Assembly: GCF_003334785.1 (NCBI RefSeq)
Contig: NZ_QOWV01000002.1
Direction: 5' to 3' (one strand)
From: Escherichia coli
Lineage (GTDB): Bacteria > Pseudomonadota > Gammaproteobacteria > Enterobacterales > Enterobacteriaceae
DNA length: 64,000 nucleotides
Positions within the stretch are counted from its first letter, which is position 1. Every line of letters begins with the position of its first letter. The notes beneath the pieces are model-generated. The model did not search any database. It saw nothing but the letters and a program-made list of their open reading frames with translations, and had not been told where the DNA came from. Positions 523-43,294 of this stretch are shown here, in pieces. The translations under genes and the position numbers were made by a program.

Positions 523-536
523 TAAAAAGAATTCAG

Positions 537-599
537 AATCAGGCCGGAGTGCTAAATACTCCGTAAACACGGTCGTACATCCAGCCGGTAGCCTGATTC
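537..599 (+). promoter_or_regulatory. iscR-iscS intergenic stem-loop structure
   Basis: GAATCAGGCCGG...CCGGTAGCCTGATTC long-range inverted repeat enclosing a second hairpin CGGAGT-gctaaat-ACTCCG. Confidence 0.6.
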
Positions 600-633
600 C
601 TTGCATTGAGTGATGTACGGAGTTTATAGAGCA

Positions 634-7231: not shown

Positions 7232-8008
7232 ATGTCCGAAACAAAAAACGAACTTGAAGACCTGCTGGAAAAAGCAGCAACTGAACCGGCGCACCGCCCG
7301 GCCTTTTTCCGTACTCTACTGGAATCCACCGTCTGGGTGCCTGGTACGGCGGCGCAGGGCGAGGCTGTGGTTGAAGATAGCGCGCTTGATTTACAGCACT
7401 GGGAAAAAGAAGACGGCACCAGCGTCATTCCTTTTTTCACCTCGTTAGAAGCACTTCAACAGGCGGTTGAAGACGAACAGGCATTTGTCGTAATGCCCGT
7501 TCGCACGCTGTTTGAGATGACACTTGGCGAAACGCTCTTCCTTAATGCCAAACTGCCAACCGGTAAAGAATTTATGCCGCGTGAAATCAGTTTGTTGATT
7601 GGTGAAGAGGGAAATCCGCTGAGCAGCCAGGAAATCCTGGAAGGCGGTGAATCGCTGATATTATCGGAAGTCGCAGAGCCGCCAGCACAAATGATTGATT
7701 CACTCACCACCTTATTTAAAACCATTAAGCCGGTGAAGCGTGCTTTTATTTGTTCAATTAAAGAGAACGAAGAGGCACAGCCTAATTTACTTATTGGCAT
7801 TGAAGCCGATGGTGATATCGAAGAAATTATTCAGGCGACGGGAAGTGTAGCGACCGATACATTACCTGGCGATGAACCAATCGATATTTGTCAGGTGAAA
7901 AAAGGGGAAAAAGGAATTAGCCACTTTATTACCGAACATATTGCGCCATTCTATGAACGTCGCTGGGGTGGTTTTTTGCGTGACTTTAAACAGAATCGGA
8001 TAATCTAA
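7232..8008 (+). CDS. sseB: serine-sensitivity enhancing protein SseB
   Basis: Track ORF 7223-8008 trimmed to ATG at 7232 (MSETKNELEDLL...), 258 aa; synteny pepB-sseB-ryfA-sseA. Confidence 0.9.
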   Translation: MSETKNELEDLLEKAATEPAHRPAFFRTLLESTVWVPGTAAQGEAVVEDSALDLQHWEKEDGTSVIPFFTSLEALQQAVEDEQAFVVMPVRTLFEMTLGETLFLNAKLPTGKEFMPREISLLIGEEGNPLSSQEILEGGESLILSEVAEPPAQMIDSLTTLFKTIKPVKRAFICSIKENEEAQPNLLIGIEADGDIEEIIQATGSVATDTLPGDEPIDICQVKKGEKGISHFITEHIAPFYERRWGGFLRDFKQNRII

Positions 8009-8010
8009 AA

Positions 8011-8031
8011 TATGCCGCCCAAAGGGCGGCA
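8011..8031. terminator. GC-rich hairpin ATGCCGCCC-aaa-GGGCGGCAT between the sseB stop and the small ORF stop
   Basis: Perfect 9-bp stem with a 3-nt loop; on the minus strand it is followed by the U/A-rich run AUAUUUUA. Confidence 0.5.
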
Positions 8032-8038
8032 TTCGGGC

Positions 8039-8176
8039 TTACTTGCTGCTCTGAAGGTTGTTAACCACCAGTAAATTGTCGCCGGAGAGACTCCGGTTAT
8101 TATTTACCTCGGTTAACAGCGCACCAGAAACAATAAGTACGATACAAAAGCACCGTATCTTCATTGTGCGGTCCAT
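8039..8176 (-). CDS. candidate small membrane protein encoded within the ryfA locus (45 aa from the first ATG, 41 aa from an internal ATG at 8164); hypothetical TimP-like toxin
   Basis: Manual translation of the minus strand: MDRTMKIRCFCIVLIVSGALLTEVNNNRSLSGDNLLVVNNLQSSK, stop at 8039-8041, followed immediately by a GC hairpin at 8011-8031. Below the ORF-track reporting size (shortest listed ORF is 60 aa). No canonical Shine-Dalgarno seen, so this is speculative. Confidence 0.3.
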   Translation of the reverse strand: MDRTMKIRCFCIVLIVSGALLTEVNNNRSLSGDNLLVVNNLQSSK

Positions 8177-8294
8177 GCGAAGACCGCATCACGACAGCAC
8201 CACTGGCGATATTGCCGCGATAGCAAGCGCTGTGAAACACCTGCATTTACGGCCACGGAACATCCTTTCCTAAAGCCAGCGCCCGTTTGCGAGA

Positions 8295-8491
8295 CGGCGG
8301 AAAGGGCCGCAGTGGATAATACACTAACAGAACAATAATAACTCTCTTTTGCTTGACAAAAAGAGAGTTACTGGCGAGTATTGTCTCCGCTGAGACGCGC
8401 TTGCATTACTACGGTAATACAACCTGCTGGAAAGGCCGCGAACCGGACCAGCAACAAAAAACCGCCTGATTTTGGCGGTTTTTTGTTTTTT
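8295..8491. repeat. ryfA-locus tandem module, copy 1 (~200 nt, ends in a bidirectional terminator)
   Basis: Aligns by eye to 8617-8810 at roughly 80-85 percent identity; shared blocks GGCGGAAAGGGCCG, ACTCTCTTTTGCTTGACAAAAAGAGAGTTACTGG, CCTGCTGGAAAGGCCGCGAACC, then a terminator. Confidence 0.7.
8455..8491. terminator. bidirectional intrinsic terminator (AAAAAACCGCC-tgatttt-GGCGGTTTTTTGTTTTTT)
   Basis: GC stem flanked by an A-run on the 5-prime side and a T-run on the 3-prime side, so it is functional on either strand. Confidence 0.75.
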
Positions 8492-8616
8492 AAAGGAAAG
8501 TGAATTTACATGTTTAAGTAATATCTTTTACCGGTTAGAATTTTTAATTTTGAGCAGGATTTGTTTATATTTGTCTGAATTCGGACTAATAAGCCAGGTT
8601 ATTTTATTACCGAACA

Positions 8617-8810
8617 CGGCGGAAAGGGCCGGTGTCGATAATACGCTAAATAAACAATAATTACTCTCTTTTGCTTGACAAAAAGAGAGTTACTGGTGAG
8701 TATTGTTTTGCTGTGAAGCACCTGCGTTGCTCATGTAACACAAGTCAACCTGCTGGAAAGGCCGCGAACCAGACTAGCAATAAAAAACCGCCAAATTCGG
8801 CGGTTTTTTA
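8617..8810. repeat. ryfA-locus tandem module, copy 2
   Basis: Diverged duplicate of 8295-8491, separated from it by a ~125-nt AT-rich spacer. Confidence 0.7.
8782..8810. terminator. bidirectional intrinsic terminator; ends the sseA transcript and module copy 2
   Basis: AAAAAACCGCC-aaatt-CGGCGGTTTTTT, 15 nt downstream of the sseA stop on the minus strand. Confidence 0.8.
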
Positions 8811-20360: not shown

Positions 20361-21479
20361 ATGCATAACCAGGCTCCAATTCAACGTAGAAAATCAACAC
20401 GTATTTACGTTGGGAATGTGCCGATTGGCGATGGTGCTCCCATCGCCGTACAGTCCATGACCAATACGCGTACGACAGACGTCGAAGCAACGGTCAATCA
20501 AATCAAGGCGCTGGAACGCGTTGGCGCTGATATCGTCCGTGTATCCGTACCGACGATGGACGCGGCAGAAGCGTTCAAACTCATCAAACAGCAGGTTAAC
20601 GTGCCGCTGGTGGCTGACATCCACTTCGACTATCGCATTGCGCTGAAAGTAGCGGAATACGGCGTCGATTGTCTGCGTATTAACCCTGGCAATATCGGTA
20701 ATGAAGAGCGTATTCGCATGGTGGTTGACTGTGCGCGCGATAAAAACATTCCGATCCGTATTGGCGTTAACGCCGGATCGCTGGAAAAAGATCTGCAAGA
20801 AAAGTATGGCGAACCGACGCCGCAGGCGTTGCTGGAATCTGCCATGCGTCATGTTGATCATCTCGATCGCCTGAACTTCGATCAGTTCAAAGTCAGCGTG
20901 AAAGCGTCTGACGTCTTCCTCGCTGTTGAGTCTTATCGTTTGCTGGCAAAACAGATCGATCAGCCGTTGCATCTGGGGATCACCGAAGCCGGTGGTGCGC
21001 GCAGCGGGGCAGTAAAATCCGCCATTGGTTTAGGTCTGCTGCTGTCTGAAGGCATCGGCGACACGCTGCGCGTATCGCTGGCGGCCGATCCGGTCGAAGA
21101 GATCAAAGTCGGTTTCGATATTTTGAAATCGCTGCGTATCCGTTCGCGAGGGATCAACTTCATCGCCTGCCCGACCTGTTCGCGTCAGGAATTTGATGTT
21201 ATCGGTACGGTTAACGCGCTGGAGCAACGCCTGGAAGATATCATCACTCCGATGGACGTTTCGATTATCGGCTGCGTGGTGAATGGCCCAGGTGAGGCGC
21301 TGGTTTCTACACTCGGCGTCACCGGCGGCAACAAGAAAAGCGGCCTCTATGAAGATGGCGTGCGCAAAGACCGTCTGGACAACAACGATATGATCGACCA
21401 GCTGGAAGCACGCATTCGTGCGAAAGCCAGTCAGCTGGACGAAGCGCGTCGAATTGACGTTCAGCAGGTTGAAAAATAA
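20361..21479 (+). CDS. ispG: 4-hydroxy-3-methylbut-2-enyl diphosphate synthase IspG (GcpE)
   Basis: 372-aa ORF; Cys ligands in CPTCSR and GCVVNGPGE. Confidence 0.95.
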
Positions 21480-21567
21480 TAACGTGATGGGAAGCGCCTC
21501 GCTTCCCGTGTATGATTGAACCCGCATGGCTCCCGAAACATTGAGGGAAGCGTTGAGGGTTCATTTT
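21480..21567 (+). ncRNA. sroE: SroE-like structured RNA in the ispG-hisS intergenic region (approximate)
   Basis: Position matches the reported SroE location; hairpins GGGAAGCG-cct-CGCTTCCC and TGAACCC...GGGTTCA followed by a T-run. Confidence 0.4.
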
Positions 21568-21589
21568 TATATTCAGAAAGAGAATAAAC

Positions 21590-41030: not shown

Positions 41031-41047
41031 AAAGCAAACGTTTGCGA
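41031..41047. promoter_or_regulatory. PurR operator (purine box) in the purMN control region
   Basis: Palindrome AAGCAAACGTTTGCGAG containing the canonical GCAAACGTTTGC core, about 70 nt upstream of the purM start. Confidence 0.8.
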
Positions 41048-41222
41048 GACTGCTTTACACAACCTTTTTGCACGTCTTTTCCCCAGGCGCGCGGCGAAAG
41101 AAGACTTGTGCCAGGGTAAAGGTTAGTTTTCGGATGGAATAATCTTCTTTCATAACCATCTGAATATAAAATAACTTTATCTCAAACCGTTATCATTTTG
41201 ACTAAAGTCAACGAAAAGAATA

Positions 41223-41265
41223 TTGCCGCCTTGAAGAAAGGAGGTATAATCCGTCGATTTTTTTT
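41223..41265 (+). promoter_or_regulatory. upp promoter (TTGCCG-N16-TATAAT) with initially transcribed T8 tract (UTP-sensitive reiterative transcription)
   Basis: TATAAT at about 41245-41250 followed by CCGTCGATTTTTTTTG; known regulatory architecture of upp. Confidence 0.7.
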
Positions 41266-41292
41266 GTGGCTGCCCCTCAAAGGAGAAAGAGT

Positions 41293-41919
41293 ATGAAGAT
41301 CGTGGAAGTCAAACACCCACTCGTCAAACACAAGCTGGGACTGATGCGTGAGCAAGATATCAGCACCAAGCGCTTTCGCGAACTCGCTTCCGAAGTGGGT
41401 AGCCTGCTGACTTACGAAGCGACCGCCGACCTCGAAACGGAAAAAGTAACTATCGAAGGCTGGAACGGCCCGGTAGAAATCGACCAGATCAAAGGTAAGA
41501 AAATTACCGTTGTGCCAATTCTGCGTGCGGGTCTTGGTATGATGGACGGTGTGCTGGAAAACGTTCCGAGCGCGCGCATCAGCGTTGTCGGTATGTACCG
41601 TAATGAAGAAACGCTGGAGCCGGTACCGTACTTCCAGAAACTGGTTTCTAACATCGATGAGCGTATGGCGCTGATCGTTGACCCAATGCTGGCAACCGGT
41701 GGTTCCGTTATCGCGACCATCGACCTGCTGAAAAAAGCGGGCTGCAGCAGCATCAAAGTTCTGGTGCTGGTAGCTGCGCCAGAAGGTATCGCTGCGCTGG
41801 AAAAAGCGCACCCGGACGTCGAACTGTATACCGCATCGATTGATCAGGGACTGAACGAGCACGGATACATTATTCCGGGCCTCGGCGATGCCGGTGACAA
41901 AATCTTTGGTACGAAATAA
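41293..41919 (+). CDS. upp: uracil phosphoribosyltransferase
   Basis: Track ORF 41266-41919 trimmed to ATG at 41293 ([16 protein letters not shown]...), 208 aa. Confidence 0.95.
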
Positions 41920-41934
41920 AGAATAAAAATAATT

Positions 41935-41964
41935 AAAGCCGACTTTAAGAGTCGGCTTTTTTTT
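41935..41964 (+). terminator. intrinsic terminator or attenuator between upp and uraA
   Basis: AAAGCCGACT-ttaag-AGTCGGCTTT followed by a T8 run. Confidence 0.75.
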
Positions 41965-42004
41965 GAGTAAAGCGCCTATAACACATAATACAGAGGATAA
42001 TACT

Positions 42005-43294
42005 ATGACGCGCCGTGCTATCGGGGTGAGTGAAAGACCGCCACTTTTACAGACAATCCCGCTTAGTTTGCAACATTTGTTCGCCATGTTTGGTGCAACC
42101 GTCCTGGTGCCCGTCTTATTTCATATTAACCCGGCGACTGTACTGTTATTTAACGGTATTGGAACGCTGCTGTATCTCTTCATCTGTAAAGGGAAAATTC
42201 CGGCTTATCTTGGTTCCAGCTTTGCCTTTATTTCACCGGTATTGTTACTGTTGCCGTTAGGGTATGAAGTCGCGCTGGGCGGCTTTATTATGTGCGGCGT
42301 GCTGTTCTGCCTGGTTTCTTTTATCGTGAAGAAAGCGGGGACCGGCTGGCTGGACGTGCTGTTTCCACCTGCGGCAATGGGCGCAATCGTTGCCGTCATC
42401 GGTCTGGAGCTGGCGGGCGTAGCTGCCGGTATGGCGGGTTTACTCCCGGCTGAAGGGCAAACGCCAGACTCCAAAACCATCATCATCTCTATTACCACCC
42501 TGGCGGTCACGGTTTTAGGTTCCGTGCTGTTTCGTGGTTTCCTGGCAATTATCCCGATTTTAATTGGCGTGCTGGTGGGGTACGCGCTCTCTTTCGCAAT
42601 GGGAATTGTCGATACCACGCCGATTATTAATGCTCACTGGTTTGCGCTGCCAACCCTCTATACGCCGCGCTTCGAGTGGTTTGCCATTCTGACTATTCTG
42701 CCAGCGGCGTTAGTGGTTATTGCCGAACACGTAGGGCACCTGGTAGTAACGGCTAATATCGTCAAAAAAGATCTGCTGCGCGATCCAGGTCTGCACCGTT
42801 CGATGTTTGCTAATGGCTTGTCGACCGTGATTTCCGGCTTCTTTGGCTCTACGCCAAATACTACTTACGGAGAAAACATTGGCGTGATGGCGATCACCCG
42901 TGTTTACAGTACCTGGGTTATCGGCGGGGCGGCGATTTTCGCTATCCTGCTTTCCTGCGTCGGTAAACTGGCTGCCGCTATCCAGATGATCCCATTGCCG
43001 GTGATGGGCGGCGTTTCGCTGCTGCTTTATGGTGTCATCGGTGCTTCCGGTATTCGTGTTTTGATCGAATCGAAAGTGGATTACAACAAAGCACAGAACC
43101 TGATCCTGACTTCCGTGATTTTGATCATCGGCGTCAGTGGCGCGAAGGTAAACATCGGCGCGGCGGAGTTAAAAGGTATGGCGCTGGCGACCATCGTCGG
43201 TATCGGCTTAAGTTTGATCTTCAAACTGATCAGTGTGCTGCGCCCTGAAGAAGTGGTGCTGGACGCAGAAGACGCGGATATAACAGACAAATAA
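42005..43294 (+). CDS. uraA: uracil:H+ symporter UraA (NCS2 family)
   Basis: Track ORF 41963-43294 trimmed to ATG at 42005 ([16 protein letters not shown]...), 429 aa; polytopic membrane protein. Confidence 0.94.

Follow-up and report, generated by a model that had tools for sequence, protein, structure and literature searches.

The window analysed here is a stretch of 64,000 nucleotides (64 kb) of Escherichia coli DNA, in which the two pyrimidine-salvage genes upp and uraA lie one behind the other on the plus strand. The gene upp (41293-41919) encodes uracil phosphoribosyltransferase (208 aa), and uraA (42005-43294), the distal gene of the operon, encodes uracil permease (429 aa). Both open reading frames were assigned by the RefSeq annotation of the identical K-12 sequence; over the whole 1.1 kb around the upp promoter the sequence does not differ from that of E. 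coli K-12 MG1655 (100% identity), and this upp-uraA stretch was found in all 5426 complete E. coli genomes. The genes purN and purM lie on the minus strand near 41.2 kb, and hda follows uraA on the plus strand. The palindrome GCAAACGTTTGC (41034-41045), upstream of the divergent purM, is presumably the PurR operator of purMN. A 301-aa open reading frame on the minus strand (41182-42087) mirrors the frame of upp and was discarded for that reason. At other places of the window (523-632, 8007-8310, 8442-8650 and 21479-21570), Rfam gave hits above its gathering threshold to ordinary known E. coli RNAs: the iscRS stability element, ryfA, IS128 and sroE.

Upstream of upp, on the plus strand, a consensus scan placed the -35 hexamer TTGCCG at 41223-41228 and, after a 16-nt spacer, the perfect-consensus -10 hexamer TATAAT at 41245-41250, which was also recovered by pattern scan; the pair agrees with 10 of 12 consensus positions. 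The same TTGCCG/TATAAT pair has been catalogued for upp-uraA among constitutive RpoD promoters (PMC3946193). Between the -10 hexamer and the start sites lies the discriminator CCGTC (41251-41255), followed by the two start bases G at 41256 (G6) and A at 41257 (A7) and then by eight T's (41258-41265; A8 in the template), a tract that is ended by G 41266. The remaining upp leader is short (41266-41292), with 13 bases between this G and the Shine-Dalgarno sequence AAGGAG (41280-41285), and the upp ATG occupies 41293-41295. The original prediction, with a range (41223-41295) that closes on the G of the upp start codon, had placed a T8 tract immediately after the -10 element. Direct reading and pattern scans show that the tract downstream of TATAAT is real, but "immediately" is wrong, since the tract begins 7 nt downstream of the hexamer, at +2 or +3 of the transcripts. 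It thereby covers +2 to +9 or +3 to +10, as the mechanism described below needs.

The published upp-uraA reiterative-transcription element, 5'-GATTTTTTTTG (PMC7039003), is matched base for base by the initially transcribed sequence of the window. This element is already known and has been experimentally characterised in exactly this sequence: in the E. coli upp promoter (Tu & Turnbough 1997, J Bacteriol 179:6665; Cheng, Dylla & Turnbough 2001, J Bacteriol 183:221) the same bases follow TATAAT-CCGTC in the same gene and organism. The window shows no difference from that promoter; a T7 tract is present in about 8% of E. coli and tracts of T7-T10 in other Enterobacterales. As far as sequence can address them, all features of the upp/codBA promoter class are present, namely a sigma-70 promoter whose -10 is good and whose start sites fall 6-8 nt beyond it (here G at 6 and A at 7), two adjacent start bases of which the downstream one abuts a long T run (G41256, A41257, T8), the pyrimidine-salvage genes upp and uraA directly downstream, and identity with the experimentally characterised upp element; the UTP-dependent start shift and the AUUUUn ladder of the class come from the literature. 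It is almost certain that the stretch comprises the sigma-70 promoter of the UTP-sensing upp-uraA salvage operon of E. coli together with its initially transcribed region.

In the work of Tu and Turnbough of 1997, most upp transcripts are reported to start at positions 6 and 7 after the -10 element (G6 and A7); high UTP reportedly leads to A7 starts and to AUUUUn transcripts that are not extended into upp, and low UTP to G6 starts with normal elongation. A long T·A tract is reported to be needed for the regulation (Tu & Turnbough 1997; Cheng et al. 2001). According to the mechanism proposed for this locus, UTP would be sensed by RNA polymerase without a regulatory protein, and the polymerase may initiate at G6 (41256, the productive site) or at the neighbouring A7 (41257, the non-productive site). 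At high UTP, initiation at A7 would be favoured, the AUUU... transcript would slip back on the A8 template tract, U would be added repeatedly to give AUUUUn, and this transcript would be released without ever entering upp. At low UTP, initiation at G6 would be favoured and the GAUUUUUUUUG transcript would elongate normally. Uracil phosphoribosyltransferase and, via read-through, uracil permease would be made only under pyrimidine scarcity.

Published work agrees with this scheme. The genes pyrBI, codBA and upp are under the control of reiterative transcription initiation, and for codBA and upp the stuttering is triggered indirectly, by switching of the transcription start site under excess UTP, with unproductive release of the slipped transcripts (PMC12709180, PMC6245113). 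The gist of the G6 and A7 roles is confirmed in PMC12709180 and PMC7039003, and mutation of the tract abolishes pyrimidine regulation of upp (Cheng et al. 2001, as cited in PMC6245113). The assignment of the locus to known UTP-sensitive start selection and reiterative transcription, made in the original prediction, is upheld by the identical published element, by the literature mechanism and by the cross-species conservation presented below. The further claim that high UTP lowers upp-uraA expression by stuttering leaves out a step, as UTP first shifts the start from G6 to A7 and only the A7 transcripts stutter and are released. The UTP dependence of start choice and the stuttering are taken from the literature, and the present analysis contributes the sequence, its identity, its conservation and the unstructured leader. 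Among the results obtained, there was no evidence contradicting the promoter mechanism.

Other E. coli pyr genes use attenuation, and the U-rich leader of upp stands before a pyrimidine gene. It could accordingly be read as an attenuator leader of the pyrBI/pyrE type, in which UTP-sensitive pausing would be coupled to translation of a leader peptide, with a terminator before upp. Just 27 nt separate the tract from the ATG, and no hairpin above chance was found in the upp leader (41256-41310; fold -7.5 kcal/mol, z = +0.77 vs shuffles). Between promoter and upp, there was no leader ORF in the ORF list and no terminator-like site in the terminator scan, and Rfam gave no match to the upp leader at the gathering threshold. 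Because the leader is without structure, leader ORF, terminator or Rfam match, the attenuator reading was rejected as extremely improbable.

Compared with other nucleotide-sensing initiation regions, the upp promoter works on the same principle as that of codBA (Qi & Turnbough 1995), also a salvage operon with UTP-dependent start switching and non-productive stuttering on a T run (ATTTTTTG; PMC12709180, PMC7039003), which differs in its shorter tract (T6), its alternative start bases and the operon that it controls. At pyrBI and carAB P1, UTP-dependent reiterative transcription likewise lowers productive initiation (PMC6245113, PMC7039003), but the tract there is T3 only (AATTTG, GTTTGC), there is no start switching and stuttering competes directly with elongation; pyrBI has in addition a downstream attenuator. 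The pyrG gene of Bacillus subtilis shares with upp the sensing of a nucleotide by slippage at the transcript start (PMC7039003). Unlike at upp, stuttering at pyrG is productive, the added G's form an antiterminator, and it is low CTP that is sensed, with activation of expression.

The conservation of the promoter module was determined in 120 upp loci, one genome per species, which were sampled with a degenerate pattern of the first nine codons only. Since the loci were drawn by coding-sequence pattern only, the sample is unbiased toward any leader. The arrangement TATAAT-N5-two start bases-T(6-10) was found in 96 of the 120 species loci, in which the invariance of TATAAT is given by the search expression itself, as this demanded TATAAT. 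These 96 loci comprise nearly all Enterobacterales sampled, and the 24 loci without the module are from Pasteurellaceae, Orbaceae and a few endosymbionts, together with two cut at contig ends and one with an N in the element. Of the 96 loci with the module, 92 have GA as their two start bases. The discriminator is always 5 nt long, G+C-rich and C at its end (CCCGC in 31 loci, CCGGC in 30, CTCGC in 22 and CCGTC in 7), and the tract is most often T7 (44 loci) or T8 (38), less often T9 (12), and T10 or T6 in one locus each. When the loci were anchored on the -10 hexamer, information content was maximal from about -9 to +19 and near zero on either side, where the flanks have diverged. A conserved core with diverged flanks is the pattern expected of a functional promoter and initially transcribed module, and the cross-species conservation therefore supports function independently of the literature.

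These data also bear on the reading that the T8 run is an incidental part of an AT-rich leader and that upp is constitutive. T8 runs as such are nothing unusual in the window (4 found vs about 6 expected), and the promoter is catalogued as 'constitutive' (PMC3946193). What stands out is where the tract lies with respect to a perfect -10: TATAAT-N7-T8 has one occurrence in the 64-kb window and none in 100 dinucleotide-preserving shuffles, the -10/N5/GA/T(6-10) block is kept in the 96 species loci while neighbouring positions vary, and regulation through the tract has been published (PMC6245113, PMC12709180, PMC7039003). An incidental T8 run at a constitutive upp promoter therefore has next to no probability.

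Of 5425 E. coli genomes, 4939 contain the exact 68-mer with T8, and 440 (about 8%), UTI89 among them, contain an exact variant with T7, although part of these T7 calls may be homopolymer sequencing errors. A T7 tract is very likely tolerated, as T7 is the commonest length across species. The E. coli T7 variants taken together with this cross-species preference indicate that exactly eight T's are not required. The start bases vary in a few loci: T replaces G6 in Escherichia albertii NBRC 107761 (TATAATCCGTCTATTTTTTTTG), two Photorhabdus loci have GG-T7 without A7, and Ca. Pantoea persica has G-T8. With E. albertii lacking G6 and Photorhabdus lacking A7, the two-start arrangement is not universal, and start-site switching may be different or absent in E. 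albertii, Photorhabdus and Ca. P. persica.

In five Pasteurellaceae loci that lack the long tract, a -10-like hexamer is still followed, after 5 nt, by GA and T3-T4 (TAAAAT-CTGAC-GATTTTA, for instance), which may be a shorter stuttering site like those of pyrBI and carAB. Five Brenneria/Pectobacterium loci carry an insertion in the leader, with 99-163 nt from the T tract to the ATG vs 25-37 nt in other loci. The insertion contains a hairpin and a T-run, and in one of these loci (L021) the upp-uraA spacer has repeated copies of a similar unit. The inserted sequence has the look of a small intergenic repeat and might supply the leader with an attenuator-like terminator.

Upstream of the promoter, at 41198-41211 on the plus strand, lies the palindrome TTGAC-TAAA-GTCAA, which shares 8 of 10 positions with the FNR consensus TTGAT-N4-ATCAA. 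It is centred at about -51.5/-52.5 from the two upp start sites, and about -52 is not known as a classical activator position. Among 95 Enterobacterales species loci, 67 have their best match to TTGAT-N4-ATCAA at a fixed distance of -47/-48 from the -10 hexamer; the match is perfect in about 20 of these, and the site is missing in Erwinia and Pantoea. In PMC2634741, upp-uraA is tabled as FNR-activated, citing an FNR regulon study and EcoCyc, and the palindrome is probably the site behind this recorded activation.

Between upp and uraA, a hairpin resembling an intrinsic terminator was detected on the plus strand at 41935-41964 by terminator scan, folding and conservation. It consists of an 11-bp stem with a 3-nt loop (AAAGCCGACTT/TAA/AAGTCGGCTTT, 41935-41959) and a T-run at 41957-41964 (U8 in the transcript), has a folding energy of -15.2 kcal/mol (z = -3.4 vs shuffles), and is placed 15 nt past the upp stop codon (TAA) and 40 nt ahead of the uraA ATG. 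The marks of a terminator are thus a stem with 5 G-C pairs, a 3-nt loop and a T8 run directly after it, downstream of a stop codon. In the 89 sampled loci with uraA after upp on the same strand, CCGRC-loop-GYCGG with a T-run of 6-9 nt was found between the two genes in 85; the four loci without it are from distant Pasteurellaceae and Orbaceae, with permeases only about 40% identical. The hairpin is kept both where it immediately follows the upp stop and is far from uraA (Pectobacterium, Dickeya, Serratia and Hafnia) and where an insertion has left it near uraA (Erwinia, Pantoea and some Yersinia). Its loop is free to vary. At two positions of the stem, compensatory change via G-T intermediates was seen (A-T to G-C in 5 loci, G-C to A-T in 4 loci), and the four invariant core pairs (C-G, C-G, G-C, C-G) were fixed by the search expression and have no evidential weight. 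Folding and conservation predict a conserved and functional RNA hairpin that has every hallmark of an intrinsic terminator, and its A-rich 5' flank, 11-bp stem and perfect U8 suggest strong, not leaky, termination.

Of 5427 E. coli records, 5424 have an upp-uraA intergenic region with an identity of 99% or more. In strain H62 (NZ_CP146556.1), the intergenic match breaks just past the terminator T-run (query position 59) and there is a second matching place elsewhere in the record; in 8 of 5426 E. coli genomes, no place covered at least 80% of the intergenic query. These breaks suggest that in H62 and a few other E. coli something has been inserted between the terminator and uraA.

The original prediction had described the hairpin and T-run at 41935-41964 as a partial terminator modulating read-through into uraA. 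The structure itself is real and conserved, and "partial" derives solely from the published co-transcription of upp and uraA. The operon name upp-uraA is in use (PMC7039003, PMC3946193, PMC2634741), and both genes respond alike in published arrays (PMC2634741, PMC11228462). Because upp-uraA is described as a bicistronic operon, we infer that termination at the upp hairpin is partial. In the proposed scheme, the hairpin and U8 past the upp stop would form an intrinsic terminator that ends most upp transcripts, and a fraction would continue into uraA. This resembles intra-operon terminators that set gene ratios, with a hairpin and U-tract between co-regulated genes, here a soluble enzyme followed by a membrane transporter; no sign of conditional control was found at the upp-uraA hairpin.

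The word "modulating" found no support. Folding gave a single hairpin with no alternative (antiterminator) structure, and no ligand-binding RNA family was found at the hairpin in Rfam. At E <= 1, Rfam returned nothing but generic terminator look-alikes, Trp_leader and STnc240 among them, all well below threshold, and these were rejected; with a single hairpin and sub-threshold Rfam matches only, a regulated attenuator or riboswitch for uraA was likewise set aside. A search for upp/uraA 3'-end or read-through data among the Adams et al. 2021, TERMITe, 3'-UTR valves and nanopore studies found no entries in the supplements of three Term-seq/nanopore papers, and a literature search for work on a uraA-specific promoter or terminator returned nothing relevant.

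The strong terminator features would also suit an essentially complete upp terminator, with uraA expressed mainly from a start of its own downstream of or inside the hairpin. A promoter-like TTGGTA-16-AATAAT lies at 41906-41933, at the end of upp; RNA started from it would have its 5' end within the 5' arm of the stem and therefore escape termination. In many species, 100-500 nt between the hairpin and uraA leave room for a promoter. Against a separate uraA start, Andersen et al. reportedly described upp and uraA in 1995 as a bicistronic operon in which uraA comes second, and the two genes co-vary in the arrays cited above. Promoter-like matches are moreover at chance level (2 found vs 2.4 expected), the site at 41906-41933 is weak and Escherichia-specific, and in E. 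coli the hairpin and the uraA ATG are just 40 nt apart, with no convincing promoter in between. Expression of uraA mainly from its own start is thus considered unlikely.

Intercistronic stem-loops in polycistronic mRNAs usually serve in 3'-end stabilisation or as processing barriers. The upp hairpin might accordingly act mainly against 3' exonucleases, with a high upp:uraA ratio arising from differential stability, and a stable stem directly past the upp stop is indeed kept in the 85 of 89 loci. Every conserved stem is followed by the 6-9-nt T-run, however, which is needed for intrinsic termination and not for stabilisation, and the two roles are not mutually exclusive. A mainly stabilising hairpin is regarded as quite improbable, and partial termination by an intrinsic terminator is preferred.

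A more speculative extension, to which only slight probability is given, is that the hairpin and U8 form a second nucleotide-sensitive step, by UTP-dependent read-through at the long U-tract or by stem-internal starts that bypass it, and that the operon, through this step and the FNR-type site at its fixed position, integrates UTP and oxygen signals. If this were true, the uraA:upp ratio would be tuned separately from the promoter control.

The upp promoter is a textbook case of regulation without a regulatory protein, in which the UTP pool is read through start choice and slippage. Its recovery in K-12 sequence adds nothing new, and the added value of this analysis is modest and comparative: the -10/N5/GA/T(6-10) arrangement is near-invariant across Enterobacterales, with natural tract lengths of T7-T10, and the terminator and the FNR-type palindrome are conserved alongside the promoter module. 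The conserved features could offer starting points for studying how the level of uraA is adjusted to that of upp and how anaerobiosis acts on pyrimidine salvage.
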